From a virus (Duplodnaviria; Caudoviricetes), in IMG/VR virus record IMGVR_UViG_3300042453_000310, positions 1 through 60,443 of that record: a stretch of DNA of 60,443 nt; one strand, 5' to 3'. The translations under genes and the position numbers were made by a program. Below the pieces are notes generated by a model. It was not told the origin of the DNA. It searched no databases and saw only the letters and a list, made by a program, of their open reading frames with translations. This document shows, one piece after another, positions 33,307 to 48,482 of this stretch. Each line of letters opens with the position of its first letter. Within the stretch, counting starts at the first letter, position 1.

Positions 33307-33493
33307 CGGATTGTTCAACTTTCTGTGCAAGGTCAAGTAAATAACGCTCTGCGAGGGCTAGACCCTGAATAATCCCGCAGAGTTTTTGGTACTCTTCAAA
33401 AGTACGGCACGAACCACCAGCCAAGTCATCAGCGTAGTTGTTCATGTCAGTGCGTATTTTTTCACGTAATACGCGTACGAAGTCTTGGATCAT
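33299..33493 (-). CDS. Small head-module protein
   Basis: 64 aa; LAGG....EEY...CG.I.GL; coupled to the portal gene. Confidence 0.75.
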   Translation of the reverse strand: MIQDFVRVLREKIRTDMNNYADDLAGGSCRTFEEYQKLCGIIQGLALAERYLLDLAQKVEQSDE

Positions 33494-35985
33494 TTTCTAG
33501 AACCTTGGTTTCTACTGTTTGAGAGCGCAGCAGTACGCGCTTGTAAATCCATCTGGGCTTTACTCTTTGCGATGTCGGCGCCCATTTGGAGGCCGGCACG
33601 TTCTTGTTCAAACTGTTGCTTGAATTCGCTCTCTTTTATTTGCGCACCTGTGCGAAGAGCCTCTAGTTCCAGTTTGCCGCTGACTTCTTGCTCTTTCAGA
33701 GCCTGTGCGTCGGCCTTGGCAGCAGCGTCCATCATGATCTTTTGTTTCTTTAACTCAAGTTCCTGACCTTTGAGTTGGAGTTCCTGCATCTGCAACTGCA
33801 TGACGGGGTCTTGCATCTGTTGTTGTGCCTGCTGTTGTGCAGCCTTGGCTTGGTTTTGCATCATCACCTGTTGCGCTGCTTGAGCCATCATGCCCGACAA
33901 GGCAATCTCGATCTGCGGTGGCAACTTCTCGTCTTCGGGAGGCAGGGGCATGCCCAACTGCTGCTCGATCTGCTGGCGCATTTGGTAACCAACGTGCTCT
34001 GCAATGTGCGCCGTAATTGCGCCCATGATCTTGGGAGCCTGTGGGTTCTGGCCAATAAACTGTTGCATCATTGGGTCTTGGAGTAGCATCATGTGCACTT
34101 GGATATGTGACTGATGGTCTTGGTGTAAGAACGCTTTAATCGGCTTGCCCTTGAGTGCGTTTTGATTCTCCTGCACAGGGTCTGTCGGTTTCTGGTCGTC
34201 TTCAATTGGCACAAGTTTTTCAGCGTTCTTGATGCCTAAGACATTGAGCATCCCCCTGTGCAATTCTGGCAAGTTGTAAATATCCGGAGCCATCTGCGCC
34301 ATCTGGATCACAGCTTGGTACTGGATAACGCGCTGAGACATGGTGGCCGCATTGGGGTCTGACACGGGGATGATGTCCACCAAGTCGTAGTCAGCTTTCT
34401 TAGCTTTACGTGTGCCGTACTCAGGCGTGTACTTGTAGTCTGGGTCTGTGTAGTCGCGAATGATGTTCTTCAAGAGCTTGAACTCTTGCTTCAGCGCAAA
34501 GTGCACACGGGCCTGAACAGCCGTCATCACCTTAAGCTGGCGCTCTAACAGCGCAAGTGTGGTTCCCACAGGAGCCTGCGCAGACATGTCAGACACCTTC
34601 ATGTCAGCAGTCGCGGCAAAACGCCTGCCTTCATCAACGATGGTCTGCATCAAGTTAAACAGCGTAGCGCTTGGCTCCTTGTACGGCAGAGGCAAGATGT
34701 TGTCACGAATTGTGCCCGAGCCAACGTCTACATCACGGAACTCTCCGGGTGCGATTGGTGTGTCATCTCCTTTGATGCGCAGACCCCGTGTCTTAAGTCC
34801 GCCGGGCAGATTGCTGAGTGTTCCTGCATCGACAAGCTGGCGCATGAGGGATGTAGCGGATTTAGCAAAGCCTCCGATAAGGTGGAAAAGCCCGAAGCCG
34901 TAAGCTCCAAAACCCGGAATATATTGGTAGTGCACAAAGTGCTGGCGCTTGAGTCTGAGGTCATCTTCTTCCTTCCAGTTGCGGCGGATTGACAGAATGT
35001 CGTTAGAGCCTTTAATCAACGTAACAACGTACGGCAACATGATGCCGGTCTCTTCGTCTGCGTCGTCTTTGTCTTCGTAACCTTCAAGGTTCAAGTCAAC
35101 GTGGCACTCGTATAGTGTGTAGCGGTCGTCGTTTAAGTCACTAAAGCCAGTCTCTTTGTCCTTGGCTTTCTGAATGTCTGTCAAATCTTTGGGTGAGTCA
35201 GGCAACTCAATGTCAACGTAGAAGCCCACTTGTTGGAGCTTGACGATCTCGTTCTTGGTCTTGCGCATGACGTGCGTGATGCGGTAGCAAGTATCCAAAT
35301 CCGTTGTACCGTACGGCAGATACATATCTTCCGCAGGAATAAACATCGACACCTGACGTCCCAAATTGGGATCGTAGTACACCTTCTTAAACGCTGAGCC
35401 TGTGGCCGGTAGTGACCAGAGCATGCGCTCGTGTTCAGCGCGGTACTCCGTCATGACTTCCGTCAACTCGTAGTTCATGTCCTCTTCGATGTTAGCCGCA
35501 ATCTCTTTCATCTCTGGCGTTTCTTTACCGATGAGTTTGCTGCGCACTGGCCCTTGGGCTGGGAACGTCTCAGTGATTGTCTCAGCTTGAAAGCGCACAA
35601 CAGCTTCTGTAATCATGGGGTGGAACACACCACATGCACCGTTCCAAGGTTCTGTGCGTTCTTCTATCTGCAGACCCAACAGCTTCAGACCATCAACGTA
35701 CGTCTTCTCCCAATCCTTGCGGCCATTTTTGTCATTGTCAATGTCAGACACCAAGTCACCAGCCAGCGACTGCAGGACACCGTCTTTTATGTACTCGGCC
35801 AAGTTATCGTCAAAACCTTCTTCATCGTCGTCTTCTCCGGGCGTGAGAGTAATCTCTATCCCGTCCATGCCGATGGTGACTTCTTCGGGATCAACAATCT
35901 CAATCTCAAGAGGAGACTCCTGTTCACCCAGCGCGTCAATGCCCATAGGTTGTTGGTACAGCGCTTTGTCGATGTTCGTTGCCAT
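33490..35985 (-). CDS. Portal protein
   Basis: 831 aa directly after TerL; GSAFKKVYYD, YGFGLFHL; Q-rich C-terminal coiled-coil barrel as in P22-type portals. Confidence 0.88.
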   Translation of the reverse strand: MATNIDKALYQQPMGIDALGEQESPLEIEIVDPEEVTIGMDGIEITLTPGEDDDEEGFDDNLAEYIKDGVLQSLAGDLVSDIDNDKNGRKDWEKTYVDGLKLLGLQIEERTEPWNGACGVFHPMITEAVVRFQAETITETFPAQGPVRSKLIGKETPEMKEIAANIEEDMNYELTEVMTEYRAEHERMLWSLPATGSAFKKVYYDPNLGRQVSMFIPAEDMYLPYGTTDLDTCYRITHVMRKTKNEIVKLQQVGFYVDIELPDSPKDLTDIQKAKDKETGFSDLNDDRYTLYECHVDLNLEGYEDKDDADEETGIMLPYVVTLIKGSNDILSIRRNWKEEDDLRLKRQHFVHYQYIPGFGAYGFGLFHLIGGFAKSATSLMRQLVDAGTLSNLPGGLKTRGLRIKGDDTPIAPGEFRDVDVGSGTIRDNILPLPYKEPSATLFNLMQTIVDEGRRFAATADMKVSDMSAQAPVGTTLALLERQLKVMTAVQARVHFALKQEFKLLKNIIRDYTDPDYKYTPEYGTRKAKKADYDLVDIIPVSDPNAATMSQRVIQYQAVIQMAQMAPDIYNLPELHRGMLNVLGIKNAEKLVPIEDDQKPTDPVQENQNALKGKPIKAFLHQDHQSHIQVHMMLLQDPMMQQFIGQNPQAPKIMGAITAHIAEHVGYQMRQQIEQQLGMPLPPEDEKLPPQIEIALSGMMAQAAQQVMMQNQAKAAQQQAQQQMQDPVMQLQMQELQLKGQELELKKQKIMMDAAAKADAQALKEQEVSGKLELEALRTGAQIKESEFKQQFEQERAGLQMGADIAKSKAQMDLQARTAALSNSRNQGSRK

Positions 35986-35993: not shown

Positions 35994-37535
35994 CTAGTAG
36001 TATTCGTGTTTCCTGCGGTGAAAGATCGCAAGATCGTCTTTCTCGTCCGTGTCTAAACTGATAAAGCCGCCTTGCCTAAAGCGTAGCAGCGCCTGTGTTG
36101 TCGTGTCCACGTAGTCGTCGTGCTCCCCAACTGGAAACGCGGCCATCTCTTCAATCACTTCCCGTGCCCAGCGTGTGTCGGGTGCCCAGACTTTACCTGA
36201 ACTGAACAAATCCGCAACCGCGTTGACGCGCACCATCTTGTCGTTGCCGCGTGATGGGCTGAACTCCTGCACAGGTATGCCCAACGCCCTGAGTTCCTGA
36301 ATCAACGGCCCCCCAGATGCCTTTTTCTCCACAATGAACGCGTCGGGTTCCCACTCTTTGTACTGCTTAAGCGCCACCACCTTAAGTTCAGGGAAAGCCA
36401 TGCGATCTTTAAACGCATCCAGTAGGATAAGTTGGGGCGAGTCATTTTCTTCCTCGTTGTAGAAGATGCCCCACGTTGTGCAGGCGGAATAGTCGGATGT
36501 GTTCTTAGTTTCAAACGCCGTATCCCAAGACTGAATTATGTACTCGCACTTGGGCGGGTCATCCGGCTCCCAAATACGCCACATCTTACGGCTGACGATG
36601 GCAGAGTTCTCAGATGTGGGCTGCTGCATGTACTGCGCATTCCAATACCGCGGGTCAATACTGGCTTTTGTTGATTTCAGCGCTTCAAGCGACCACTGCT
36701 CTGGCCACAGGGACTTCTCGTCTTCGTCCCCGTCGTTCAAAATGGCCGGCAACTCCACAATCTCCCATGGCACAGCCTCTGGGTTCTTGGTTTGGTAATC
36801 AATCAGGCGCCCAGTCAGGTCTAGGAGCGACCAACGGGTCATCACAATGATAATCCCCCCGCCCGGCATCAGACGCTGCAGTGGGCCCGTCTGGAACCAA
36901 GACCAAGCTGTATCAAATGCGAGTCGAGAGTTGGACTTTACGTCCTGCTCCGAGTGAGGATCGTCAATAACGAACAGATCAGCACCACGACCAGCAAGAG
37001 CGCCCCCGACACCAGCAGCATAGTACTGACCGCCAGCGCTTGTAGACCACTTACCGGCAGCTTTCTGGTCATCTGCCACCATAGTTTGGGGGAAAACTTC
37101 TCTGTATTCATCAGAATCGATCAAGTTACGTATGCGCCGTCCAAAGTCCTCTGACAGACCCGCAGTGTGCGTGCCCATGATGATCTTCTTCTCAGGATAC
37201 TTACCTAGAAAGTACGCAGGAAACAGGTAAGATGAGAACTCAGACTTACCCATACGTGGCGCGATGTTGATAATCACGCGCTTCTTGCGACCTTCAACCA
37301 CATCTGTAAAGATTTTGGCAAGTTTTTTATGGTGTGGGCCAATCTTAAAGCCGGGGTACACGGCAGTAGCGAACCCCAGCATGTTTGTTTTAGCCGCCTG
37401 TAGTCTAGCGCGGGACTCCCGAAGCTCTAAGTCTTCAAAGAGCTCCATCTTTTCTTTGACGCTCATGCGCGGCAAAGCTTTGGCCATAGCTTCTAGCTCA
37501 ATCTTGCTCAGCGTCGTGAAGTTCTCAGGCTTCAT
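35994..37535 (-). CDS. terL: Terminase large subunit
   Basis: Walker A IAPRMGKS, Walker B FVIDDP, MTRW coupling motif, nuclease SWDTA...DYSA, HDDYVD. Confidence 0.95.
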   Translation of the reverse strand: MKPENFTTLSKIELEAMAKALPRMSVKEKMELFEDLELRESRARLQAAKTNMLGFATAVYPGFKIGPHHKKLAKIFTDVVEGRKKRVIINIAPRMGKSEFSSYLFPAYFLGKYPEKKIIMGTHTAGLSEDFGRRIRNLIDSDEYREVFPQTMVADDQKAAGKWSTSAGGQYYAAGVGGALAGRGADLFVIDDPHSEQDVKSNSRLAFDTAWSWFQTGPLQRLMPGGGIIIVMTRWSLLDLTGRLIDYQTKNPEAVPWEIVELPAILNDGDEDEKSLWPEQWSLEALKSTKASIDPRYWNAQYMQQPTSENSAIVSRKMWRIWEPDDPPKCEYIIQSWDTAFETKNTSDYSACTTWGIFYNEEENDSPQLILLDAFKDRMAFPELKVVALKQYKEWEPDAFIVEKKASGGPLIQELRALGIPVQEFSPSRGNDKMVRVNAVADLFSSGKVWAPDTRWAREVIEEMAAFPVGEHDDYVDTTTQALLRFRQGGFISLDTDEKDDLAIFHRRKHEYY

Positions 37536-38103
37536 CTTTATCTTCTGTAACGTCAATCACATCAATCACACCCATGAACCTGTTGAGCTTCTCTTTAATT
37601 CGTGTCTCTAGCTCAACATCAGACATCTGAGTCTTCTTGACCTCAATGCGTTCCGTGAACAAGGCCACTTCCGTGACCTTGCCCAACATGTCTAGCGCCT
37701 TGAGTCTGATGCGGGCGTCTGGATGTTCGACTTCATCTAAGATTTTAGCCACAGCAAAACCCCGTAGCTCCTTGGCCTGCTCAACAAACGCCCAATCGTA
37801 GGCTGTAAGCATCCCGACTAAATGCTGCACTGCAGCAGGAGCCTTAATGTTAGCAAGCGCTTGCTGTGTGTTCTGGGGTGGCTGGCCGGTGACTAGGCTT
37901 GCAAACGATTGACGTGCGGCTTGCGCGTCTGCCTTGGATTCTGCCTCATCGTCGTCTAGCTCTAACTCTTTTAGCCAGTTGGCTGTTTGTACTTGCGCGT
38001 CAATGATGTCTGCTGGCGCTGCTTCAGCAAAAGGCAACGGCGTAGCCTCAGTCATGTCGACCACGTTTGGTTCAAACTCGCCGTTAATCAAATGTTCTAG
38101 CAT
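37525..38103 (-). CDS. Terminase small subunit (putative); start at 38103 or 38184
   Basis: Directly upstream of and overlapping terL; RLKALDMLGK..EV.LFTE motif. Confidence 0.7.
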   Translation of the reverse strand: MLEHLINGEFEPNVVDMTEATPLPFAEAAPADIIDAQVQTANWLKELELDDDEAESKADAQAARQSFASLVTGQPPQNTQQALANIKAPAAVQHLVGMLTAYDWAFVEQAKELRGFAVAKILDEVEHPDARIRLKALDMLGKVTEVALFTERIEVKKTQMSDVELETRIKEKLNRFMGVIDVIDVTEDKDEA

Positions 38104-38130
38104 TGCGTAGGGGTAGTACTGGCGTCGTAC

Positions 38131-38159
38131 TTGTTGCCTCGTTGGTGTTAGTGTACACT
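38131..38159 (+). promoter_or_regulatory. Sigma70-like promoter for a small RNA
   Basis: TTGTTG-17 nt-TACACT. Confidence 0.55.
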
Positions 38160-38166
38160 TCTTTTC

Positions 38167-38248
38167 GGTGATGGCGCAAGTCATTGCTTCTCCTTGATGG
38201 TTTCCAGTTGCCATCTTTGCCCCGGCTCGCAAGGTCGGGGCTTTTTTT
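38167..38248 (+). ncRNA. Candidate small RNA with anti-Shine-Dalgarno segment
   Basis: Hairpin GTGATGGC-GCAA-GTCATTGC, unpaired TTCTCCTT, hairpin GATGG...CCATC, then terminator GCCCCGGC...GTCGGGGC-T7; lies just downstream of a promoter. Confidence 0.6.
38219..38248 (+). terminator. Rho-independent terminator
   Basis: GC-rich stem followed by TTTTTTT. Confidence 0.8.
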
Positions 38249-38257
38249 ATTTGGTAT

Positions 38258-38273
38258 TGTCCAACGTTTGACA
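38258..38273. promoter_or_regulatory. Operator-like palindrome TGTCCA-ACGT-TTGACA
   Basis: Same family as 46058-46073 and 53273-53288. Confidence 0.55.
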
Positions 38274-38575
38274 TTGATCCTTGGAAATTTTTTAAAATTT
38301 TTGGGGGGTGGGGTGTTTGGTTTTTAGATCGTAATTTTTGAAAATTGGAATTGCGGGTGTGGAACAGTGTTTATATAGGACTGTGACGGTGACCTCAAAT
38401 AGGGTTGGTGGGGGATGGGTGGGGTCAACGCCACGCCAAAAACGCCCCCTCAGAGAGCCGATACAGCCCCAAAATGACCCCCATACGTAACATAGAGGTA
38501 TCGGTTGGGACAAGCCTAGCCGATGTGGGGAACTTGTTCCCCGCTTTAACCAATAGTCAATTCAAGGAGAATCAA

Positions 38576-39022
38576 ATGACTAAAGCAAACGCAATCACAG
38601 TAACGTATCAACAGTTCGCTAGAGGTGTAGGTGCAACTGATCGCATCACACTAGAGGCGAGCCTTGCATGGCACAAAGAGTATCTGACTCTCGATGCAGG
38701 TAAGCAAAGCGAGTGGCGATCTGACTGGGTGCTGAACTATGTGATCGGTCGCCTAGATTGCACACAGAAGGAAGCCGAGATTATTTGTAGCAAGACTCGC
38801 ACAAAACGCACAGCCAGTCAGGAGAAGGCTGTCAATACTGGTGGTGCAAAGTTCCGTGACCACATCAGTAGGACTGGTCGCACATCGGGCAAGAAGACTG
38901 TGGTCAAGTTCACATCTGAGCAGGTGAAGGCTTGTGACAATGCCTTGGCATCTTTCCCTGCTGACACACTCAAGAAGCAAGTCGAGTTGTTGCGTGCTTA
39001 CTTGGCAACATTGCCATTGTAA
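38576..39022 (+). CDS. First early gene, hypothetical basic protein (148 aa)
   Basis: TCAAGGAGAA RBS then ATG at 38576 (MTKANAIT...). Confidence 0.75.
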   Translation: MTKANAITVTYQQFARGVGATDRITLEASLAWHKEYLTLDAGKQSEWRSDWVLNYVIGRLDCTQKEAEIICSKTRTKRTASQEKAVNTGGAKFRDHISRTGRTSGKKTVVKFTSEQVKACDNALASFPADTLKKQVELLRAYLATLPL

Positions 39023-39058
39023 ATAATCTTGGGGAACTTGTTCCCCGATTATCCAGAT

Positions 39059-39093
39059 CACCGCAAGGGCGAGTCTCTTGCGGTGTTTCTTTT
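39059..39093 (+). terminator. Rho-independent terminator / hairpin
   Basis: CACCGCAAGGG-CGAGT-CTCTTGCGGTG followed by TTTCTTTT. Confidence 0.65.
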
Positions 39094-39128
39094 CCTGTCC
39101 AATCAATAATCTCAAGGAGTCAATAATC

Positions 39129-39377
39129 ATGTACCAACTATTCAATCAGTACAGAGTCAAAGAAGTAGGCGTAGTACAAATGGGCGCAAGTAAGTATCAC
39201 CTGCAATACCATTACCCCAATGGGGGCAGCAACTACGTTGTCTATGTCTTTAGCAAGAACCTAGCTGAACGAGGGCGTGTATTCAGCACAGATGACGCCT
39301 TCTTTGACTGGCTTGAGACACAACCTAAGCAGTTAAACCTACCATTTGGGGAACAAGTTCCCCGATCTGCACTATAG
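39129..39377 (+). CDS. Hypothetical early protein (82 aa)
   Basis: AAGGAG RBS, ATG at 39129 (MYQLFNQY...); ends with QLNLPF, resembling a sliding-clamp-binding motif. Confidence 0.7.
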   Translation: MYQLFNQYRVKEVGVVQMGASKYHLQYHYPNGGSNYVVYVFSKNLAERGRVFSTDDAFFDWLETQPKQLNLPFGEQVPRSAL

Positions 39378-39411
39378 TGCGAGATTATTGAGGCAAAAAA
39401 CAAGACCCAGC

Positions 39412-39710
39412 CAAATGTCCGACACTACAACCCGTGAACTAAGTTCCGTGTAACCCCGCAAGCCGCATCCACGCTAGCGTTCCGCAAAAACTGTCCTATC
39501 TATCTATCTATTTAATATATATTTATATATATAGATGTATGTATTAGGGGGTGCTCATTCTTTTTCTTTGAGACACTTTCTTTTTTTGTTTGGCTATAGC
39601 CGTTCAGAAATAAGATAGATACATCGCACACTTTTCGTGCTAAGCTAGTACTGGTGCGGCTTCACAACCTACACGCATCTTAGTCACAGCCCTGTAGTGT
39701 TGGACATTTG
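39412..39710. repeat. ~300-bp imperfect inverted repeat around an AT-rich core (candidate replication origin)
   Basis: CAAATGTCCGACACTACA pairs with TGTAGTGTTGGACATTTG (17/18); inner matched blocks include GTGAACTAAG/CTTAGTCAC, CGTGTA/TACACG, AAGCCGCA/TGCGGCTT and TATCTATCT/AGATAGATA. Confidence 0.8.
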
Positions 39711-39741
39711 TCCGACCCTCACTTTTGGAGTAAATAATCTC

Positions 39742-40449
39742 ATGTACGAAACCTACCTCAAACTCTCAGCCAACGACCTACACAACCGCCTAACCGAGCG
39801 CAAGCTACACCCAGCCGAGATCGAAAGAATAAAAATGGAAGTCTCTGCGTTGAAAGAAACGCTACGTGTCTCACGCATCACACGCACCCAACGCAAAGCC
39901 GAATGGGACAAGGTATTAGCACCCCTGCGCTACGAGATCAACAACGCCCGTGTGGGCATGAGATACGGCGGGGAACTTGTTCCCCAGAATGAACGCAAGC
40001 TAGCGTTCAGCGAGTACATACGCATCATGGAGAAGCTGGTAGCCATGCTAGACGCCCCATACAAGGCTCTTGACCACACACCCATACAGATAGCCCGTGA
40101 CAAGGGGCTACCCAACGATGGCGAGCATTGGACTGACTGGATACCCGCACGGGTCAAGGACAAAATCTCTTTGCTGTTCGATGCCGTGCCTGTTGTACCT
40201 AGGGGCAAACGCAAGACACCCTTCCAACGCACGATGCTGCCCCACCAACATGAAACAGCCAAGGTGAGATTATTGACCAAGACAAGGAAGGAGATGGAAA
40301 CCCTCGAACGCCAAGCCACCATCAAACCAACAGACGCACGCACAGCCAAACTAGCGCAGATGCGCAAAGCCCTCAAGATTATTGACACGCTTGATAAGAA
40401 CGAAGCTGTGCCTGCCACATGGACAAAACTCAGCTTAGGGGAGGACTGA
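39742..40449 (+). CDS. Hypothetical early protein (235 aa)
   Basis: GGAG RBS, ATG at 39742; PNDGEHWTDWIP motif. Confidence 0.75.
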   Translation: MYETYLKLSANDLHNRLTERKLHPAEIERIKMEVSALKETLRVSRITRTQRKAEWDKVLAPLRYEINNARVGMRYGGELVPQNERKLAFSEYIRIMEKLVAMLDAPYKALDHTPIQIARDKGLPNDGEHWTDWIPARVKDKISLLFDAVPVVPRGKRKTPFQRTMLPHQHETAKVRLLTKTRKEMETLERQATIKPTDARTAKLAQMRKALKIIDTLDKNEAVPATWTKLSLGED

Positions 40450-40562
40450 CTACTATCATCAACTATCAACATCTTTCGGGGAACAAGTTCCCCAAGCGTT
40501 CGGCGTGTGGGCTACGCCGAGCACCATCCCGTTAGTGCCTTGTATTTTTAAGGAGAAAGCAA

Positions 40563-40856
40563 ATGACATATGAAGAACAAGCTCGTGCGTGGATACAAAA
40601 CGCACCAGAGGCGGACATCCGTATTGGGCGGTTCACGCTCAAGTTCTACTTCACAGCCAGCAGAGATTGGACTTGGTGTTGGGACTTTAAGCGCTGGCTT
40701 ACGCCAGACGAGTACAGAGGTTCGCCTGAGCATAACTACTTAGACAGAATACTTGACGGCTTAGACGTTAGTTATAACGAGATTGAGTTCATCGACTGCC
40801 TGCAAGAAGCAATGCAAGCCAAACCATTTAACCAAGGAGAAAACTATGAAATCTAA
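40563..40856 (+). CDS. Hypothetical protein
   Basis: AAGGAGAA RBS, 97 aa. Confidence 0.7.
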   Translation: MTYEEQARAWIQNAPEADIRIGRFTLKFYFTASRDWTWCWDFKRWLTPDEYRGSPEHNYLDRILDGLDVSYNEIEFIDCLQEAMQAKPFNQGENYEI

Positions 40857-41070
40857 ACACGTAACGAACGTAGAGCTTATCAACGGGCTGATGACGCACT
40901 CACAGCAGGGCGTACTAATGCAAGCGTTCATCATCGAGGCTATTGCTAAGTACGCAGAACAAACCAAAGTGTCACCGCCTTGGTCAAAGGACAACACATT
41001 CATAAGCGAGGAATCGTGGCGTGCGTGTGCTGATGAGGTAGTAGAAGCAATCAACAACAGGAGTAAGTAA
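40846..41070 (+). CDS. Hypothetical protein
   Basis: CAAGGAGAA RBS; MKSKHVTNVE...QAFIIEAIAKY. Confidence 0.7.
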   Translation: MKSKHVTNVELINGLMTHSQQGVLMQAFIIEAIAKYAEQTKVSPPWSKDNTFISEESWRACADEVVEAINNRSK

Positions 41071-41258
41071 TGAAATCATGTAGGAACTGCGCACTCTCAA
41101 CGCACACAAGCAATTGGAACGTAGGGCTTGCTTGTTTCAAAGGGCAGTTAGTTCAGCGTGTGTCTATGAGCACAGAGGAGAACCAAGCGATGGATGCACA
41201 TCTACGGACAGTAGCCGATCGTTGCGAAGATTATCAACCAGAAGGAGAAACAGTATGA
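41070..41258 (+). CDS. Small Cys-rich (Zn-binding) protein
   Basis: CRNC...C...C; TAATG coupling with the upstream gene. Confidence 0.65.
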   Translation: MKSCRNCALSTHTSNWNVGLACFKGQLVQRVSMSTEENQAMDAHLRTVADRCEDYQPEGETV

Positions 41259-41506
41259 GTACAGCTAAGTTAATTTGTATCGAGGGGTATTGGAACGATG
41301 ACAACAAACCATTCGAGCATCGTTGTTTAGTCATGCCGCAAGGGTTATCCGACTCTATGCGTGACGCTGTGCTCGACAGCCTGATAGACAGACACAACCT
41401 GTTCTATATCTTCGAGGCAGGTGAGCGCATCTTAGGTAAGCATCGTGACTTCACGATCAATTTCTTTAACCCAATAGATGAAGTGGAGGTTCCTGCGGTC
41501 TGTTGA
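41255..41506 (+). CDS. Hypothetical protein
   Basis: AAGGAGAA RBS; MSTAKLICIEGYWNDD. Confidence 0.7.
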   Translation: MSTAKLICIEGYWNDDNKPFEHRCLVMPQGLSDSMRDAVLDSLIDRHNLFYIFEAGERILGKHRDFTINFFNPIDEVEVPAVC

Positions 41507-41567
41507 GATCGTGTGTTAGTACAACGGGGAACTTGTTCCCCATTTTTTATACATCAAGGAGAAACGT

Positions 41568-43658
41568 ATGTTTCAAATAACTAGATTCGTGATGGAAGAT
41601 TTTGTTGACTCACTAGATCAGGTGATCTACATCGTGTCACTCAACAAGCGGTATATGGTGTACAACGCATCCCGTAGGCGTCTTGTCTGGTCGGATGTGC
41701 TGCACATGGATGCGGGTATTGCACCTCTCGATCTGATCACAGTAGAGAACCTATGTGCGTGGACTCGTACCTCACGCTATCGTGTCAAGGGTGAGGGTGC
41801 TTTTGCACCTCGTGCTATGACTTACAAAGAGGCTGTTGTCGAGAGCCGTGATCGCTACGATATGCATCAGATGATGCGCAGGTTGTTGACACCCACGAGC
41901 ACTGCGGATTTGCCACGGTTTGCTCGTAACCTGTTGTCTACTCGTGTCGACACAATCGTCGAGTCTTATGCCAAGAAGCATGACCCGAATGTAAACCAGT
42001 CACCGCCTGTGCCTTGCGCTAGGTTCAAGGGTTCTTGGTACTACGATCACAGCAACGACTACTTCAAGATTGCTCGCAAGCATTACTTAGACTTCGGCAG
42101 GCTCGTTGCTCGTGCCAAGGCAGGCGATGAGTCCATCACCAACGATGAGCTTCGCTCTAAGTTCTTCGAGTTGTCTGGTCGTTACAGCGAGGCCGAAAGC
42201 CATATCGATAGTGCGTTCACTGTGATTGATGCGATGGGTGACATGAACATTACGCACTGCGACTGCGGTCACTATGAGGACAGCGACAACACACACAGCG
42301 TGCGTAACGATACATGGTGCGACTCGTGCTACGACGATAACGCTGTGTATGTCGAGGATCAAGACGAGTACTGGCCTCGTGACGATGCGTACTACAGCGA
42401 GAGTGATGACTTGTACTACTCGTATGAGCGTACCGATGACGATGACGATGACGACGACGATGACGACAGCGATCAGCCAATCATGTCGTACTCTACCAAT
42501 GTGCTTCGTGTTCTTGACTACCCCTCTGGCATCACGTCTTCTCACTTCGGTGAGTTCACGATGGGCATCGAGCTTGAGATGACGTCTGGCGATCACGATA
42601 CCAACGAGTCTGCTGAGTCTGTGCGTAGCCGTTTAGGTAACGCCTACTGCATCATCAAGAGTGACGGCTCGCTTCCACACAATGGCTTCGAAGTCGTGAC
42701 TTCACCGCAAGGTCTTGCGCTTCACATCGACAAGTTCAAGAACTGGATTATCGACCCAGCCTATCGTGCATGGAACACAGGCAAGTGCGGTATGCATGTA
42801 CACATTGACTCTCGTGCCTTCACGCAGTTGACGCTCGGTAAGTTCTTGATGTTCATCAATAGCTCTGGCAACGTTGACTTCATTCGCAAGATTGCAGGTC
42901 GTCACCCATCTGTCGATGACCAAGCCCGTAGCTACTGTGCAGCAGAGCATCAGTCTATCCTTACCAACCCCAAGAAGGCGGTCAAGGGTAAGTCTGGTGA
43001 GCGCTATCGCATGGTCAATATGTGCAACCTTGGTGGTCGTGAGGCACAGCGTCTTGGTCTTAGCATGGACAACAGCTACAACGGCAAGTACAACACTGTC
43101 GAGCTTCGCATCTTCCGTGCTTCGCTCAAGAAGGAACGTCTGCTTGCACAGATCGAGTTCACTCATGCGTCTGTCATGTTCTGTCGTGTCGCATCGTGGC
43201 GTGATCTCAACGGCACATCGTTCGTCAAGTGGCTCAAGACTGTGGCGGGTCAGTACCCTGCGCTGACTAAGTGGTATGGCGTACGCAATGTACACACATC
43301 CACACCGACAGTCATAGCGCCAGCGATGGACACTTGCACTGACGCTGTGCCTCCTGCGCCTTGGCAACCTGCGGATACGGAGGATAGGCATGACAGAGAC
43401 TACCCAGTGCACATACCCTACGACAACGAGGCCGAGACGTTGAGAACGTGGGTCAATCGTCACAGTCTGTACTTCCGCTTCGCTACATACGCAGGCTCTG
43501 AGTATGTGTACTTCCCATACGGGGGCGACTTAGAAACCATCAGCAGTAGCGATGTTGTCTATATGCGTATCGGTCAACTGTGGGTTCTTATGAACGAGGA
43601 GTTTGCTGCTTCGCTTGCGCAGTCTTCATACAGAGTGTCTGAAGTACAGCCTGTTTAA
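41568..43658 (+). CDS. Putative amidoligase (COOH-NH2 ligase, Amidoligase_2-like) with N-terminal extension, Cys-rich metal-binding segment and poly-Asp linker
   Basis: MGIELEM, KSDGSL..GFEVVTSP, CGMHVHI, RYRMVN and TVELRIFR motifs of the glutamine-synthetase-fold ligases. Confidence 0.85.
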   Translation: MFQITRFVMEDFVDSLDQVIYIVSLNKRYMVYNASRRRLVWSDVLHMDAGIAPLDLITVENLCAWTRTSRYRVKGEGAFAPRAMTYKEAVVESRDRYDMHQMMRRLLTPTSTADLPRFARNLLSTRVDTIVESYAKKHDPNVNQSPPVPCARFKGSWYYDHSNDYFKIARKHYLDFGRLVARAKAGDESITNDELRSKFFELSGRYSEAESHIDSAFTVIDAMGDMNITHCDCGHYEDSDNTHSVRNDTWCDSCYDDNAVYVEDQDEYWPRDDAYYSESDDLYYSYERTDDDDDDDDDDDSDQPIMSYSTNVLRVLDYPSGITSSHFGEFTMGIELEMTSGDHDTNESAESVRSRLGNAYCIIKSDGSLPHNGFEVVTSPQGLALHIDKFKNWIIDPAYRAWNTGKCGMHVHIDSRAFTQLTLGKFLMFINSSGNVDFIRKIAGRHPSVDDQARSYCAAEHQSILTNPKKAVKGKSGERYRMVNMCNLGGREAQRLGLSMDNSYNGKYNTVELRIFRASLKKERLLAQIEFTHASVMFCRVASWRDLNGTSFVKWLKTVAGQYPALTKWYGVRNVHTSTPTVIAPAMDTCTDAVPPAPWQPADTEDRHDRDYPVHIPYDNEAETLRTWVNRHSLYFRFATYAGSEYVYFPYGGDLETISSSDVVYMRIGQLWVLMNEEFAASLAQSSYRVSEVQPV

Positions 43659-43717
43659 TTCATCAACAACCAAACGGGGAGCTTGCTCCCCATTCTTTTA
43701 CATCAAGGAAATTTATT

Positions 43718-44824
43718 ATGTGTCTTATTATTACTGGTCAGTCTGCCAAAGTTCGTTCAACCTTGCTCAATACACACGGGCTACTGAGCGACATCTTTAC
43801 AGCCAATCCTGACGGCATTGGCTTTATGTATGGTTCAGCCAAGGGACTCAAGGTCACCAAGACTTTACCCAAGAACATTGGCGATGCTACTGCATTCATT
43901 CAGCGCCTACCGCAAGACGATCGTGAGATTGCCATTCACTTCCGCTGGACTACACACGGCAAGACCGACATGCTCAACTGCCATCCCTATGATGTGATTC
44001 CTGGCTTCATCGCCATGATGCACAACGGCGTACTGCATACAGGCAATGCTGCTGACAAGACCAAGTCAGATACATGGCACTTCATCAAGGACTACTTGCA
44101 TACCGCTGTGTCGTCTGCACCTGACCTTGTGTATGACACGGGCTTCGTGTCTATGATGGAGGAGTTCATCGGCAACAATCGCTTCGTGTTCATGAATGGC
44201 GAGGGTCGTATGCAACACGTCAACTTCGAGCAGGGTATCGAGCACGACGATATGTGGTTTAGCAATACCTATGCTTGGACTCCATCACGCCTGATCCCTA
44301 GCTACAAGAGTGCGACACTCAAGTCATACAAGTACGCCAGCGCCTATGGTAGCTACATGGATGACGAGTACGACGAGATGTATGACTACAACGCAAGCTT
44401 TGGCATCTATCCCCGCAGTGTCAGCGCACACAGCGCCAACTATGACGAGACAGCGTTTGACTTTCCCGATGACGAAGATGGTTTCATTCGCCCTGAGCTT
44501 GATGATCTTGCTACTGCGCTTACTGAGGCAGACGTAGAGACGATGGAGATATGGCTTGACCAGATGCCTGCTTACACGTTGACTACTGTACTGCACCTGC
44601 TCGCACCCGAGCCACTTAGTTACACACATCGTGATGACTTGTGCTTTGCCGAGCAGGGTATCTACGATATGTTTATAGAGGGCGATGCGTCTGGTCTTAT
44701 CAGCACGGCGACCAAGTCGTCTGGTGCAGTCAGCCTAATTGCCGAGGTCATGTGTTACTACCTGCAATGGGATGTACGCAAGCCTGTATCGTTCAAGTCA
44801 ACATTGCCTGCACTGTTGACCTGA
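43718..44824 (+). CDS. Class II (Ntn) glutamine amidotransferase
   Basis: Cys2 nucleophile (MCLII), NPDGIG, HFRWTTHG, NCHPY, HNGVL, SDT. Confidence 0.9.
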   Translation: MCLIITGQSAKVRSTLLNTHGLLSDIFTANPDGIGFMYGSAKGLKVTKTLPKNIGDATAFIQRLPQDDREIAIHFRWTTHGKTDMLNCHPYDVIPGFIAMMHNGVLHTGNAADKTKSDTWHFIKDYLHTAVSSAPDLVYDTGFVSMMEEFIGNNRFVFMNGEGRMQHVNFEQGIEHDDMWFSNTYAWTPSRLIPSYKSATLKSYKYASAYGSYMDDEYDEMYDYNASFGIYPRSVSAHSANYDETAFDFPDDEDGFIRPELDDLATALTEADVETMEIWLDQMPAYTLTTVLHLLAPEPLSYTHRDDLCFAEQGIYDMFIEGDASGLISTATKSSGAVSLIAEVMCYYLQWDVRKPVSFKSTLPALLT

Positions 44825-44830
44825 TGTGTA

Positions 44831-44856
44831 GCGGGGGTAACACCCCCGCATTTTTA
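44831..44856 (+). terminator. Hairpin / terminator after the GATase gene
   Basis: GCGGGGGT-AAC-ACCCCCGC followed by ATTTTT. Confidence 0.55.
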
Positions 44857-44874
44857 AACCAAAGGAGAGAGAAG

Positions 44875-45177
44875 ATGAAGTACAGAGTACAAGTAGTTAT
44901 GTCCTACTGGCAGACAGTAGAGGTCGAAGCCGACAGCAGTGCCGATGCTGCAAGCAAGGCGTTCGATGAGTTTGACATTACCAAAGCCCGTGTCGGGGAA
45001 GGTCAGACATACGACACCGAGTTGATTGACAAAGTGCAATACGTAGTTAGAAACCACAACCACACAGTACTTGGTGTGTTTGACAACGAGCATGACGCTG
45101 AGAAAGATGCCAAAGAGTATCGAGATCAAACAGGCAATCCTGCCTATGTAGACAAGGAGCACGAAGATGACGCCTAA
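44875..45177 (+). CDS. Hypothetical protein (DpnD/PcfM-like N-terminus)
   Basis: AAGGAG RBS; MKYRVQV...TVEVEADS..DA..KA. Confidence 0.65.
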   Translation: MKYRVQVVMSYWQTVEVEADSSADAASKAFDEFDITKARVGEGQTYDTELIDKVQYVVRNHNHTVLGVFDNEHDAEKDAKEYRDQTGNPAYVDKEHEDDA

Positions 45178-45964
45178 CATAATGAAGGTGGTCAAAGAGG
45201 ACGTTTATACCGAAGGCGATCCAATGGACTACACATGGGTTGATCTTGGGAATTTTGATTCCATGATAGACGCTAAATTCGATAAGGTTATGGATGCTAT
45301 ACCTGATTTGTTTACCTCTGACCCCGCTGATCTGATGCTACCCTTTGAGCAGATGGGCATAGTTCGGCAACCAACCACGGCTGTTCATCCGCTCGGCATA
45401 ACTATTGAGCGCAATGTCGGTGAATTGATTGTTCGCTTGCGTGGCAGGAGCGGCGACGCAGGGGCGATACGCAGTACAGGAAAAGAGCAGTTTGTTTCCA
45501 TGCCCCCAAACGAGACAGCCGAAAGCTATATACAAGCCTTGAGAGACAGAGGGATGGCGCCTTCCGACGAAGGGCTTACTCCCGAGCGTTATGTGTTTCA
45601 AATATGGAGTTCAATGGTCAGCCATCTTTATGCCGAGTACATGCGTAAGGCTATGGATATGCACGAGAGAACCCGTGTGTACAAACCCATCGCATCGCCA
45701 TCCAACAGTAAGCGTATCCGCAAAGGCAAGCACCCCTTGTTCGAGTGGAAAGTTATCGACGTGACTGCTAGACCTGAAGACCACGACATCGTGGCGACAG
45801 GCAATGGGCGTAACAGCCCACGACAACACAAGAGACGCGGACATTTCAGGCAGTACAAGGATGGACGCAGAACTTGGATACCCGAAGCCCTAGTGGGCAA
45901 GATTGAGTTTGGCTATATTTATCACAGCTACACAGTTACACAAACAAAGGAGAAACAACAATGA
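45167..45964 (+). CDS. Hypothetical protein with SPRxHxRRGHxR basic motif
   Basis: 265 aa, AAGGAG RBS; C-terminal SPRQHKRRGHFR...WI...VG motif common in phage early proteins. Confidence 0.75.
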   Translation: MTPNIMKVVKEDVYTEGDPMDYTWVDLGNFDSMIDAKFDKVMDAIPDLFTSDPADLMLPFEQMGIVRQPTTAVHPLGITIERNVGELIVRLRGRSGDAGAIRSTGKEQFVSMPPNETAESYIQALRDRGMAPSDEGLTPERYVFQIWSSMVSHLYAEYMRKAMDMHERTRVYKPIASPSNSKRIRKGKHPLFEWKVIDVTARPEDHDIVATGNGRNSPRQHKRRGHFRQYKDGRRTWIPEALVGKIEFGYIYHSYTVTQTKEKQQ

Positions 45965-46053
45965 TGACACGCTGGGAGAAATTCGAAAGAGTAGTACTTT
46001 TGTTATCGGTGATTGTACTAATACTGGATCTTTTATACTGGAGACCCTATTGA
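45961..46053 (+). CDS. Small TM protein (30 aa, not in ORF track)
   Basis: AAGGAGAA RBS; MMTRWEKFERVVLLLSVIVLILDLLYWRPY. Confidence 0.65.
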   Translation: MMTRWEKFERVVLLLSVIVLILDLLYWRPY

Positions 46054-46079
46054 CTTCTGTCTACTCTTGGACAAATAAT
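46050..46079 (+). promoter_or_regulatory. Sigma70-like promoter with operator palindrome in the spacer
   Basis: TTGACT-18 nt-AATAAT; TGTCTA-CTCT-TGGACA at 46058-46073. Confidence 0.6.
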
Positions 46080-46099
46080 ATTCACTCAAGGAGAAAATA

Positions 46100-46318
46100 T
46101 TGAACCACCCACCCTACAACACGGGTAAAGTCAAGATCGGCCTGACCTATACCCCACCACCCCCTGAATGTACGCCTGAGTCCGAATGGATACAAGGCGT
46201 ACTGCTTGGCGACAAGCAGGGTATGTCCGAGCTTACGCTCGCAACAGTACAGTCCATTGGGCTTATTGCTTTCATCGTTATCGTCATGCTTATAACAGGA
46301 GGAACCTCAAATGCCTGA
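46100..46318 (+). CDS. Small membrane protein
   Basis: TCAAGGAGAA RBS, TTG start; PYNTGKVKIG motif; C-terminal TM helix. Confidence 0.7.
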   Translation: MNHPPYNTGKVKIGLTYTPPPPECTPESEWIQGVLLGDKQGMSELTLATVQSIGLIAFIVIVMLITGGTSNA

Positions 46319-46973
46319 CATTCAAACTGCCCTTAAAAACGCACTAACCCGCACCTTACAGGAGTGGGATGACGACGGGGAACAAGTTCCCCCTCCTCCT
46401 ACTGTCAACACTACTATCAACAACTCTTTATCTACACCTTCTCAAGGAATTCCCATGGCCAAGAAAACTTTCAACGTCACCAACAATGTGTCACGCGTGA
46501 CCTTCGACTACATCAAGAACAACCCCGGCTCCACACGCAAGGAGATCATTCAAGACCTTGAGCACGAAGGGTTTGGGGGCGGCTCAGTCTCTAGCCTTAT
46601 TGCGCAGATGCGCCGTAACAAAATGGTTCACGAAACCAACGGCCTGCACTACGCAGACATTGACGAGTACCGCCCGATCAAAACACTTAAAGCTATGAAC
46701 AAAGATAAAGACGCCACACCCAAGCGCAAGTACGAAAAGAAAGCCGTGACAGGCATCGGTGCGTTGCTACGCGAGAAGCTGGAGGCTGAGCCTAGCCAAG
46801 CTGCATTGGATGCCTCCGCTGCTTTTTCCATGGGCGGGACTGTTGAAACAGACAGACGCGCATTTCTCACAAAGCTTGTGCGTAATAAAACACCGCAGGA
46901 TATTTTGTCAGATATGACTGTGTATCAGGCGCACGAGTTGTATGTACACTTGAAGCAAATGTTTGGAGGTTGA
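46311..46973 (+). CDS. Winged-helix-like DNA-binding protein
   Basis: TFDYIKNNPGSTRKEI...SVSSLIAQM..NKMV wHTH pattern. Confidence 0.65.
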   Translation: MPDIQTALKNALTRTLQEWDDDGEQVPPPPTVNTTINNSLSTPSQGIPMAKKTFNVTNNVSRVTFDYIKNNPGSTRKEIIQDLEHEGFGGGSVSSLIAQMRRNKMVHETNGLHYADIDEYRPIKTLKAMNKDKDATPKRKYEKKAVTGIGALLREKLEAEPSQAALDASAAFSMGGTVETDRRAFLTKLVRNKTPQDILSDMTVYQAHELYVHLKQMFGG

Positions 46974-46974
46974 T

Positions 46975-47301
46975 ATGAAACCCATAGAACTTGAAGTAGA
47001 CGAGCACCCGCACTCGGGTGAGGTTAACGAACAAGGCGACTTTGTCTTCTACCTGTACGCGTCAAACGAATGCGGGCAAGAGTTTGAAGAGGCGATTGAG
47101 ACTTTGATACATCTTTGGCCTTTGCAAACAGAAGTGTCTATAAAGATCAATGTAAAACTTAAAGATGTTTACAACGACACGTACGAAATGTTCAACGCTG
47201 GAGGAAAGATTCAGCAAAAAGACACGCCACGTTTTGAAGCCCTGCGCAAAGATTGCCAATGGATAATTGACCAAATTAACGAACTGGAGATGAACACATG
47301 A
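46975..47301 (+). CDS. Hypothetical acidic protein
   Basis: GGAGG RBS, ATG at 46975. Confidence 0.65.
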   Translation: MKPIELEVDEHPHSGEVNEQGDFVFYLYASNECGQEFEEAIETLIHLWPLQTEVSIKINVKLKDVYNDTYEMFNAGGKIQQKDTPRFEALRKDCQWIIDQINELEMNT

Positions 47302-47489
47302 GCAACACAATTTTCAACAAAGAAGACTTCGACAACGTCTTTGGCAAGCCCGAAATGTATATAAGGCCAGACCCTCTCGTGCGCAACGCTGTGCTTGAAG
47401 AGGTAGCGCTGGAGTTCGATGCCATGCGCATTGCTTTTGGTGACACAGCCCACAGCTTTGCCACGTATGTGAGGGACATGAAGACATGA
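47298..47489 (+). CDS. Hypothetical protein
   Basis: ATGA coupling; RNAVLEEVA...FGDTA.SFA motif. Confidence 0.7.
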   Translation: MSNTIFNKEDFDNVFGKPEMYIRPDPLVRNAVLEEVALEFDAMRIAFGDTAHSFATYVRDMKT

Positions 47490-47677
47490 GTGGGTTTGTT
47501 AAGCGGCAATTATTTATTGGCGGCGTACAGCATGTGCACAAGTACAAAGAGTGCGCTCGGTGCAATGAATCGAAGCCACCAGAGGGCGGGATTCAACTGA
47601 GCGATACCAAATGGCACTGCGCACGATGCTGGGCCAACGGAGTAATAAGTAGGAACTTAAAAAATGCCAAGACCTAA
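47486..47677 (+). CDS. Small Zn-ribbon protein
   Basis: CARC...WHCARC. Confidence 0.7.
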   Translation: MSGFVKRQLFIGGVQHVHKYKECARCNESKPPEGGIQLSDTKWHCARCWANGVISRNLKNAKT

Positions 47678-47885
47678 ACCACCCGAGCCCATAACTTTTA
47701 GAAACATCCGTATGTCTGACAGGCAGTGGATCATATTCAACCAACTTGGCGGGGCTGAATGGTTGCGTGGGTTTCTTGAAAAGAAAGCACCAATGCCCAA
47801 GCAGTACTACGACAACGAACTAGCGCGCATACACAATCCTGCTGATGCTGCTTTTATAAACAGAAAGAGAGAGATCAATGACTAA
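47664..47885 (+). CDS. Ribbon-helix-helix-like DNA-binding protein
   Basis: MPRPKP...RNIRMSDRQW..F..LGGAEWLR. Confidence 0.65.
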   Translation: MPRPKPPEPITFRNIRMSDRQWIIFNQLGGAEWLRGFLEKKAPMPKQYYDNELARIHNPADAAFINRKREIND

Positions 47886-47893
47886 GGTACAAC

Positions 47894-48205
47894 ATGGCAG
47901 AGACACCTGAATGGAAAGTAAAGAAGGCGGTACGGCTGTTGCTTGACAAGCTAGGCGTGTACCACTTCATGCCCCCTGCTAACGGCTTTGGCCGTGCAGG
48001 GATACCTGACATCGTTGGCTGTATGGACGGGCACTTCATCGCCATCGAGTGCAAGGCTGGCAAGGGGCAGACCACTGCACTGCAAGACAGGGAACTTAAC
48101 ATGATTCTCAATGCAGGCGGTACTGTGTTCATTGCCCGTGAGCACAACATACCAGACCTAGAACTACTACTGAAGGAGAAACAAAATGAGTTACGTGGAC
48201 TTTGA
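47894..48205 (+). CDS. VRR-NUC (PD-(D/E)XK) nuclease / resolvase
   Basis: TPE.KVK, GIPDIV, AIECKAG, TALQ, AGG motifs. Confidence 0.88.
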   Translation: MAETPEWKVKKAVRLLLDKLGVYHFMPPANGFGRAGIPDIVGCMDGHFIAIECKAGKGQTTALQDRELNMILNAGGTVFIAREHNIPDLELLLKEKQNELRGL

Positions 48206-48482
48206 CGGCTCAATGTCTGAGGCAGAACTGCACCGCAGGGTAACAGCTATGTCTGACGAAGAGCAAGCCCACTTCAAGCTACTGATTCACAAGTTGGTGA
48301 TGTGCTACGGCGAGGGCAAGGCGCAGGGCATTGTCATCATTGGACGCGCTGAAGATGCGCTGGCAGGAGTCGTTACCCTAAACTGTGACGAGATGGAGGC
48401 GTCGCAACTTATGTTGGCGGCAAACGATTTTTTCGGCTTTCTCAACGTCCTAGGCGCACCACCCAAGGAGAACTTTAATTGA
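48186..48482 (+). CDS. Hypothetical protein
   Basis: AAGGAGAA RBS, 98 aa, coupled to polA. Confidence 0.7.
   Translation: MSYVDFDGSMSEAELHRRVTAMSDEEQAHFKLLIHKLVMCYGEGKAQGIVIIGRAEDALAGVVTLNCDEMEASQLMLAANDFFGFLNVLGAPPKENFN

Follow-up and report, generated by a model that had tools for sequence, protein, structure and literature searches.

A conserved candidate small RNA gene with a seed complementary to ribosome-binding sites at the early/late boundary of a tailed phage genome

The timing of gene expression in phages is explained almost entirely by transcription, that is, by promoters, sigma factors and antiterminators. A virus record of IMG/VR (IMGVR_UViG_3300042453_000310; 60,443 bp, ~95% complete; analyzed in full and hereafter called the window) raises the question of whether a small RNA (sRNA) can take part as well. 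Between the leftward packaging genes and the rightward early genes of this record lies a short unit (38166-38248, plus strand) that is independent of open reading frames (ORFs), and for which an initial annotation, made from the letters alone, had proposed an anti-Shine-Dalgarno (anti-SD) RNA able to switch off translation of the early and replication genes. The same bases, read on the minus strand, offer a ribosome-binding site (RBS) and a start codon to the first late gene, taken for terS, and the annotation had warned that they might simply be that. Does the unit encode an RNA of its own and, if so, on which messages would it act?

We show herein that the unit carries a promoter of conserved spacing, three helices, an exposed CU-rich seed and a terminator, with compensatory changes that make sense on the plus strand only, and that it is very probably a genuine, conserved sRNA gene separate from terS, as had been proposed. 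For the whole statement, namely that the phage independently transcribes an ~83-nt sRNA with anti-RBS action on its own rightward genes, we estimate a probability of about 0.5; the transcription of the RNA, its repression in trans and its timing are predictions from sequence features. If the statement is true, the lytic programme would have a post-transcriptional layer in which one RNA addresses a class of genes through a shared RBS dialect. Moreover, annotators would gain a marker of the early/late boundary, and the apparent spurious N-terminal extension of the first late gene would be explained.

A conserved unit on the plus strand

The unit consists of a candidate sigma-70-type promoter, a GCAA-capped hairpin (hairpin A), an unpaired stretch, a second hairpin (hairpin B) and an intrinsic terminator whose orientation fits plus-strand transcripts only (Table 1). 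The positions first given for the promoter, hairpins and terminator all agree with the sequence, and the proposed anatomy holds overall, except that the first hairpin is longer (9 bp) and that the unpaired stretch is to be redefined as UCUCCUU. The 83-nt plus-strand RNA folds with a minimum free energy (MFE) of -35.1 kcal/mol (z -3.23), and the MFE structure makes up 52% of the ensemble; the corresponding values of the reverse complement are -23.6 kcal/mol, z -2.00 and 5%. Typical marks of Hfq-dependent sRNAs are a run rich in U ahead of the terminator hairpin and at least six U residues at the 3' end. Both are present here, as a UUU(U) linker (UUUU and UUU are the commonest forms in the alignment A4 described below) and a U7 tail, and the two together resemble the Hfq-binding end of enterobacterial sRNAs. 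In silico, the unit thus has the features of a stand-alone bacterial-type sRNA gene: a promoter and terminator of its own, no need of an ORF and a structure conserved on the transcribed strand.

Relatives of the protein encoded by the neighboring gene at 37525-38103 are found at 433 loci in IMG/VR, 80 of which were fetched. Segment conservation was counted in the 52 unique sequences found via this protein alone. The seed is unchanged in all 52 (7/7 columns invariant), the U-tract is invariant in 6 of 7 columns and the promoter block in 26 of 29, and the stems vary through compensated changes, with 3 of 20 columns invariant in hairpin B and 5 of 23 in the terminator. Of the window and the 80 fetched loci, 79 sequences contain the region, and each of them keeps AAGGAGAAGCA. 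A pattern scan added variants and brought the collection to 79 unique versions of the unit. A covariance model (R1), built from 22 versions (alignment A3), finds the window at 38166-38249 with 104.5 bits and matched 77 of 84 sources at E <= 0.01, the seven misses being locus L122 and six distant loci.

Alignment A4, that is, the 77 distinct sequences aligned to R1, has standard pairs in 96.3% of 1785 cells, compared with a shuffled mean of 85.6%, and changes on both sides in 13 of 24 pairs. None of 500 shuffles reached any of five measures, and slid controls were at most 56.3% paired. Changes on both sides occur in 4 of 6 pairs of hairpin B (for example, GAUGG/CCAUC to GAGG/CCUC) and in 6 of 9 pairs of the terminator stem. 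The seed is again unchanged in all 77 sequences, some of which had been found by the seed pattern. The strand of the fold can be told from its wobble pairs: A4 holds 390 G.U cells versus 7 A.C cells, and the fold therefore exists on the plus strand only. This asymmetry does not depend on the fit of A4 to the model. It is seen in helix 1 (hairpin A), which is paired in 95.1% of cells on the plus strand versus 59.0% when read on the minus strand, with 249 G.U cells and a single A.C cell. In addition, the plus-strand fold is the more stable one in 83 of 83 unique variants, with a mean of -36.0 versus -26.4 kcal/mol.

The neighboring (TerS) protein family comprises 4049 homologues at 90% clustering, and distant phages, whose TerS is 34-46% identical to the distant representative P0129, were also fetched. 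With filters off, R1 had matches in six of eight of them (E 0.006-0.02), at the corresponding place and on the corresponding strand. Their layout is the same, with one to three CUCC(U) motifs that are unpaired or looped. In one (L196), for instance, TTGCGC-16-TACAAT is followed by a GCAA-capped hairpin, an unpaired CUCCUUUUGCAUGUCUCCUU, a hairpin with a CUCCU loop, a terminator that ends in a U-run and, lastly, an inverted repeat that contains TTGACA; in two others (L200 and L201), a -10-like hexamer, a single hairpin and the terminator are retained. Six diverse members fold with z-scores of -3.9 to -5.4. Several CUCCU motifs per RNA would suit an anti-SD RNA and not the leader of an opposite-strand gene.

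The promoter is accepted as real because its spacing is conserved, not because of its consensus score. TTG stands exactly 17 nt upstream of TA(C/T)A(C/A)T in 66 of 69 unique variants (18 nt in one, none in two), the letters of the spacer vary between subgroups while the 17-nt spacing is kept, and the start of the model lies 6 nt past the -10 hexamer in 64 variants. Because this -10 sits in an invariant 10-bp palindrome, AGTGTACACT, a -10-like TACACT can be read on either strand, with TTG at 17 nt on the plus strand and at 18 nt on the minus strand. The leftward TTG-18-TACACT is found in 63 of the 69 variants (TTG-17 in one); the GCAA loop of hairpin A supplies its -35 on the opposite strand. 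The palindrome may hold a back-to-back leftward promoter for the late operon, and the two promoters, one for the sRNA and one for the late operon, may be mutually exclusive. As a repeated operator, the palindrome was considered and rejected, since GTGTACAC occurs exactly twice in the window and its one-mismatch copies (29 versus 28 expected) are at expectation. A further hairpin, C (GUAC-N7-GUAC, 38116-38130), abuts the sRNA -35. It has the compensatory variants GUGC/GCAC, GUAC/GUAC, GCGC/GCGC and GCAC/GUGC, and its strand cannot be told because all pairs are Watson-Crick; it is missing in some divergent relatives, whose terS start is 10 nt away from the -35.

The rightward genes follow the sRNA unit directly and are read in the same direction. 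It could, then, be the promoter-proximal transcript of the rightward operon, with a terminator that an antiterminator overrides and with the RNA as a by-product; PR', 6S RNA and tR' of lambda, together with Q, form a parallel. The overlap of the palindrome with the -10 would suit such a leader, as would RNA-library contigs of a relative that cross the terminator (38186 to 38374). However, past the terminator stands another promoter, presumably that of the rightward genes, with TTGACA and an invariant operator, and a terminated leader needs neither an invariant unpaired CU-rich stretch nor two covarying hairpins, so that we give this explanation little credence. The downstream inverted repeat, TGTCCAACGTTTGACA, is invariant in 14 of 15 columns and is accompanied by TAAAAT ~19 nt downstream of TTGACA (38258-38300), with TATAAT in many relatives; TTGACA and the repeat are likely the rightward early promoter with its operator. 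The order of sRNA terminator and TTGACA repeat is the same in relatives with only 43% TerS identity.

The minus strand and the start of terS

The 3' arm of hairpin A carries the complement of a minus-strand ATG (38184), which is preceded by a strong SD and whose frame, in the window, runs into terS as a 27-codon extension. According to the simplest alternative there is no sRNA, and the conserved bases are the RBS, start codon and structured 5' leader of terS. The fate of the ATG 38184 frame was counted in 81 sequences (the 80 fetched loci and the window). It is fused in frame to terS in 23, the window included, as this alternative would have it, yet it ends 9 nt before the terS ATG (38103 equivalent) in 36 and is overlapping and out of frame in 12; 8 have no start codon 3-12 nt past the minus-strand SD, and in 2 the contig end cuts the region. 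The eight sequences without a start codon still keep the seed complement, and the conserved bases are therefore not an RBS. On the plus strand, the changes by which these eight lost the ATG preserve pairing (U-A to U.G, G-C to G.U).

The leader frame does not vary like a coding sequence either. Over 69 nt in 45 gap-free sequences, its 14 variable columns are split 6/3/5 by codon position, without a third-position excess, whereas the first 20 codons of gene 37525-38103 have 25 variable columns of 60, 12 of them at third positions. Moreover, among the best 150 of 555 distant TerS representatives, many of full length begin to align at residue 1 of the protein as read from 38103. From the frame fates, the codon positions and these alignments, it follows that the conserved start of terS is 38103; the 27-codon extension is, to judge by these comparisons, an accident of this genome. 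Among homologues, the equivalent of ATG 38184 is not consistently the start, an outcome that leaves the sRNA reading standing and disposes of the caveat that the unit might be just the terS start. Since, in addition, the helices pair on the plus strand only and the U-tract is on the plus strand, with no U-run past the hairpin on the minus strand, a locus without any sRNA is very improbable. The terS ATG at 38103 has no SD of its own. The bases before it (CC-TACGCA-ATG, within 38092-38115) are almost invariant in the 52 unique relatives, and coupling to the variable leader ORF may be involved in the translation of this first late gene.

The plus-strand RNA could also act in cis. It would then be an antisense regulator of the leftward late transcript, pairing with the leader ahead of terS over the SD and, in most cases, the ATG of the leader ORF, and would block translation of that ORF and, by coupling, of terS, or trigger cleavage, as sar of P22 does on ant. 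The geometry is right: the sRNA is fully complementary to the strand with AAGGAG-N5-ATG, the start is present in 71 of 79 informative sequences, the short frame ends just before the SD-less terS ATG or overlaps it in the 36 and 12 sequences mentioned above, and contigs of relatives from RNA libraries span both terS and the element, which would make the late transcript overlap the sRNA gene. On the other hand, the seed complement is kept in the 8 of 81 sequences without a start, the relation of the frame to terS is not conserved, and the leader ORF is free of codon-position bias. If the leftward TTG-18-TACACT is a promoter, the late mRNA would start within 38104-38150 and would not overlap the sRNA at all. 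A single cis target accounts neither for the several CUCCU motifs of distant relatives nor for the bias toward early RBSs described below. We consider cis-antisense action less likely than the anti-RBS reading, though it deserves more weight than any other alternative.

Complementarity to the early ribosome-binding sites

The initial annotation had listed eight RBSs of the rightward arm as perfectly complementary to the sRNA, and all eight are exact at the places named; a ninth, before the gene at 48479, had escaped it (Table 1). Matches of at least 9 nt to the 18-nt target number 13 on the plus sense, nine directly before starts and four elsewhere, and two on the minus sense, namely the element's own complement and 58264-58273. 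TCTCCTT/AAGGAGA occurs 16 times versus 5.5 expected, a count reached by none of 100 shuffles, and 12 of the 16 sites are AAGGAGA on the plus strand within 38564-48471. Early RBSs have the form (C)AAGGAGAA, and late RBSs the form U/A-AAGGA with other continuations; the late RBSs of the capsid, cement and portal genes do lack the AGGAGAA extension, as had been observed.

The whole sRNA was cofolded with RBS windows (-25 to +6) of 27 rightward and 33 leftward genes. The mean ddG is -7.34 kcal/mol for the rightward genes and -3.13 kcal/mol for the leftward ones, some of which use longest-ORF starts that may weaken their RBS scores (one-sided Mann-Whitney p = 3.9e-7). Twelve early genes and no late gene reach -9 kcal/mol or below. 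None of 34 permutations of the seed matches the real one on the early set (best -7.05), and a canonical, 16S-like CCUCCUU seed yields a mean of -6.49, with only 2 early genes at -9 or below. Complementarity is thus clearly better to early than to late RBSs, a comparison on which the initial annotation had made its proposal depend.

These figures also bear on the possibility that the RNA acts in trans mainly on host mRNAs, for shut-off or metabolic rewiring, its match to the early RBSs of the phage being a by-product of the likeness of strong RBSs. The seed is indeed close to the universal anti-SD core, and there are Rfam matches below threshold (see below). In the published account of the family RF02278, such RNAs are predicted to cover many RBSs, and overexpression of one, ncS27, slows growth (PMC5688073). 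Nevertheless, the seed of the phage does better than the canonical one on the phage's early RBSs (12 versus 2 genes at -9 kcal/mol or below), and the late RBSs escape (0/33), which looks like tuning within the phage genome; a primarily host-directed role seems decidedly unlikely.

The bias is found again in other genomes. In the window and three related complete or near-complete records, matches of at least 9 nt to the record's own 18-nt target number 13 (window), 11, 14 and 19 on the sRNA strand, as opposed to 1 (window), 1, 3 and 0 on the opposite strand with the own complement excluded. The pattern AAGGAGAA-N2-9-ATG occurs 6/0, 8/0, 0/12 and 6/0 times on the plus and minus strands, respectively, the sRNA being on the minus strand in the third of these records. 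A fifth record has 0/0, and a reversed-pattern control gave 0. The early-arm bias of the complementarity is thus present in four genomes.

Our preferred reading of the unit as an anti-RBS RNA may be outlined as follows. A host-type RNA polymerase would start ~7 nt past TACACT, at the foot of hairpin A, and end at the intrinsic terminator. The RNA would fold into three hairpins and leave UCUCCUU unpaired between the first two. This seed, extending into either neighboring arm, would pair with the (C)AAGGAGAA RBSs of the rightward (early and replication) mRNAs and would block binding of the 30S subunit, in the manner of the CU-rich double-hairpin sRNAs of Betaproteobacteria. Its timing could be set by the palindrome over the -10 and the back-to-back leftward promoter.

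In a wider form of this reading, the RNA would be a genome-wide timer. The rightward genes would have evolved a private RBS dialect, (C)AAGGAGAA(GCAA), that pairs with the sRNA over 9-12 nt and with 16S rRNA over only ~6 nt; the sRNA, as it accumulates, would outcompete ribosomes simultaneously on a dozen mRNAs of early and replication genes, and late genes with UAAGGA-type sites would be spared. One palindromic -10 would serve both the sRNA promoter and the leftward promoter before terS, so that synthesis of the sRNA would be mechanically coupled to the firing of the late operon at one DNA site. The global early-to-late switch named in the initial annotation is a plausible hypothesis; the full timer, with its dialect, its dozen targets and its linked promoters, is a tentative proposal against which we would place the odds.

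Several observations weigh against the anti-RBS reading. The sRNA promoter is weak by consensus (7/12), and a consensus scan at a threshold of 9/12 listed no promoter in 37000-39500. The leftward promoter is nearly as conserved (63/69), so the conservation of the GCAA loop could partly be that of its -35. A4 was fitted to R1 and its figures lean towards the model, and some of its rows were found by a DNA pattern that contains the seed. With its SD and ATG present in most sequences, the leader ORF may matter too. As for the RNA data, three metatranscriptomes contain 5-7% of the sampled sequence words, and their unstranded Logan contigs, pieces of relatives aligned at 85% likeness, cover terL, terS, 38056-38223, 38056-38195 and 38186-38374; they do not cover 38520-39024, a gap that carries no weight. 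Contigs that bridge 38056-38223 or 38186-38374 are more than a lone 83-nt RNA would give; they may be DNA carry-over, and neither strand nor ends can be read from them.

The targets raise doubts of their own. Early RBSs are also the stronger ones for a generic 16S tail, at -7.0 versus -5.6 kcal/mol (p = 0.008). Part of the contrast between the arms therefore reflects SD strength as such, and spacers rich in A are widespread in any case; the margin by which pairing with the sRNA exceeds pairing with 16S still differs between the arms (p = 0.0065). Target RBSs covary only weakly with the sRNA variants. In one relative (G003), UUGA in the sRNA is followed by G, not U, and the amidoligase and GATase RBSs have C for A at the -3 pairing position; the complementary base at TCAAGGAG-type RBSs is present in 4 of 4 (C) in G003 versus 2 of 4 in the window. 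Because the two genes share one upstream cassette, this parallel change may be a single event. The RBS of the first rightward gene, which was found in 27 of 139 rows, has no clear association with the sRNA type: with a U-type sRNA it reads ATC in 1, CTC in 8 and TTC in 12 (complementary base in 1 of 21), and with a G-type sRNA CTC in 4, TTC in 1 and ACC in 1.

Two side observations concern these sites. The cassette that is nearly the same before the amidoligase gene (41521-41567) and the next large gene (43671-43717) consists of a GGGGA(A/G)CTTG(T/C)TCCCC hairpin, a T-run and ACATCAAGGA(G/A)A, and resembles a terminator-plus-RBS module that was duplicated or kept alike. A second 10-nt copy of the seed (58264-58273, plus strand, CTTCTCCTTG) is preceded by a small hairpin and lies in the intergenic stretch that separates the last rightward gene from the stop of a giant leftward gene; it may be a matter of chance, since three related genomes have no equivalent of at least 9 nt at such a place.

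Known RNAs and neighboring features

A scan against Rfam (E up to 10) gave sub-threshold matches only, with no C4 match listed. The three best near-matches are plus-strand sRNAs with CU-rich stretches that end at or just past 38248: RF02278 (Betaproteobacteria_toxic_sRNA; 27.4 bits versus a gathering score of 50, E 0.0007 on 201 bases, full model 1-64 at 38187-38248), anti-hemB (RF02837; 23.5 versus 49.5 bits, ending at 38248) and mmgR/suhB (RF00519; 20.2 versus 41 bits, ending at 38256). The latter two are driven by the CU-rich stretch and the terminator. All three scores are below gathering, and membership in these families is ruled out.

The sRNAs of RF02278 are the double-hairpin RNAs ncS03, ncS05, ncS27 and ncS62 of Burkholderia, to which NmsR of Neisseria is related; the first description of these toxic sRNAs is reportedly that of Kimelman in 2012. 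Like them, the phage sRNA is a short molecule in which a U-rich linker joins a hairpin to an intrinsic terminator. Unlike them, it carries one more hairpin on its 5' side, lacks (in the window) a CU-rich loop in the middle hairpin, and is encoded by a phage next to packaging genes rather than on a chromosome, with the phage's own genes as its best predicted targets. RF02278 RNAs occur in several copies on Burkholderiales chromosomes, whereas the phage sRNA has one copy per phage genome. The published description of RF02278 as double hairpins with unpaired CU-rich stretches that are the reverse complement of RBSs (PMC5688073; PMC4603805) fits UCUCCUU with its hairpin and terminator. By analogy, the phage element would work like RF02278 without being a member.

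Among phage RNAs, sar of P22 and c4 of P1/P7 are small RNAs described as blocking translation by pairing around an RBS (PMC12197685). Like sar, the phage sRNA gene lies opposite an SD and a start codon. However, sar and c4 have one dedicated target (ant, or icd-ant), whereas the phage sRNA has a dozen complementary RBSs elsewhere in the genome and, unlike sar and c4, can dispense with the opposite start codon (8/81 without). A review of 2025 lists sar, c4, DicF, IsrK, AgvB, AsxR, PreS and VpdS; in its account of these few RNAs, they have single targets or act on host RNAs, and none is described as a multi-target anti-SD RNA against the early genes of its own phage (PMC12197685). Among the papers listed by the literature searches, none describing the present RNA was found.

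For the host, one genome per bacterial or archaeal species was scanned with the pattern. Of the 64 stretches obtained, R1 matches only one (L225), a 4.9-kb contig filed under a Phycisphaerales metagenome-assembled genome (MAG), and no host can be named from it; a mis-binned piece of phage DNA is a likelier explanation of this contig than a true trace of the host.

The neighboring features are collected in Table 1. Gene 37525-38103 has no Pfam, PHROG or PDB match, and its name, terS, is therefore a call by position only. A blastn search of 37000-39500 against GenBank phages gave no match.

Table 1. Features of the sRNA locus, predicted target sites and neighboring genes (positions in the window)
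Feature	Position	Strand	Details
Candidate sigma-70-type sRNA promoter	38131-38159	+	-35 TTGTTG 38131-38136, 17-nt spacer, -10 TACACT 38154-38159
Palindrome AGTGTACACT	38150-38159	both	invariant, 10 bp; contains sRNA -10
Predicted ~83-nt sRNA	38166-38248	+	5' end placed from the -10, 3' end from the terminator
Hairpin A	38167-38188	+	9 bp, GGUGAUGGC-GCAA-GUCAUUGCU; GCAA tetraloop, 4 G.U pairs
Seed UCUCCUU	38189-38195	+	unpaired in MFE structure; complement of AAGGAGA
Hairpin B (GAUGGU/GCCAUC)	38196-38215	+	second hairpin, followed by UUU
Intrinsic terminator	38219-38248	+	stem-loop 38219-38241 (9 pairs, 7 G-C) and U7 38242-38248
Minus-strand leader reading	38104-38184	-	SD AAGGAG 38194-38189, then ATG 38184; AAGGAG-N5-ATG
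RBS of first rightward gene (38576)	38562-38571	+	10-nt complement; ddG -5.8 kcal/mol
RBS of gene 40846	40833-40841	+	9-nt complement; ddG -9.9 kcal/mol
Amidoligase RBS	41552-41563	+	12-nt complement; ddG -10.0 kcal/mol
RBS of gene 43718 (GATase of the initial annotation)	43701-43709	+	9-nt complement; ddG -4.5 kcal/mol
RBS of gene 46100	46086-46095	+	10-nt complement; ddG -6.4 kcal/mol
RBS of gene 48479 (TTG start)	48464-48472	+	9-nt complement; ddG -9.4 kcal/mol
RBS of gene 50461	50448-50457	+	10-nt complement; ddG -11.3 kcal/mol
SNF2 helicase RBS and start codon	51670-51681	+	12-nt complement; ddG -12.0 kcal/mol; Pfam SNF2
RBS of gene 53310	53299-53309	+	11-nt complement; ddG -11.6 kcal/mol
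Inverted repeat TGTCCAACGTTTGACA	38258-38274	+	with perfect TTGACA -35; presumed rightward early promoter, directly past sRNA terminator
Portal gene	33490-35985	-	end part of leftward arm
TerL gene	35994-37556	-	Terminase_6C/6N, phrog_38; follows gene 37525-38103
Gene upstream of terL (terS)	37525-38103	-	small terminase by position only

The rightward (early and replication) arm opens with the gene at 38576. A very long open frame on the minus strand extends past both ends of the record (1-8307 and 58326-60443).

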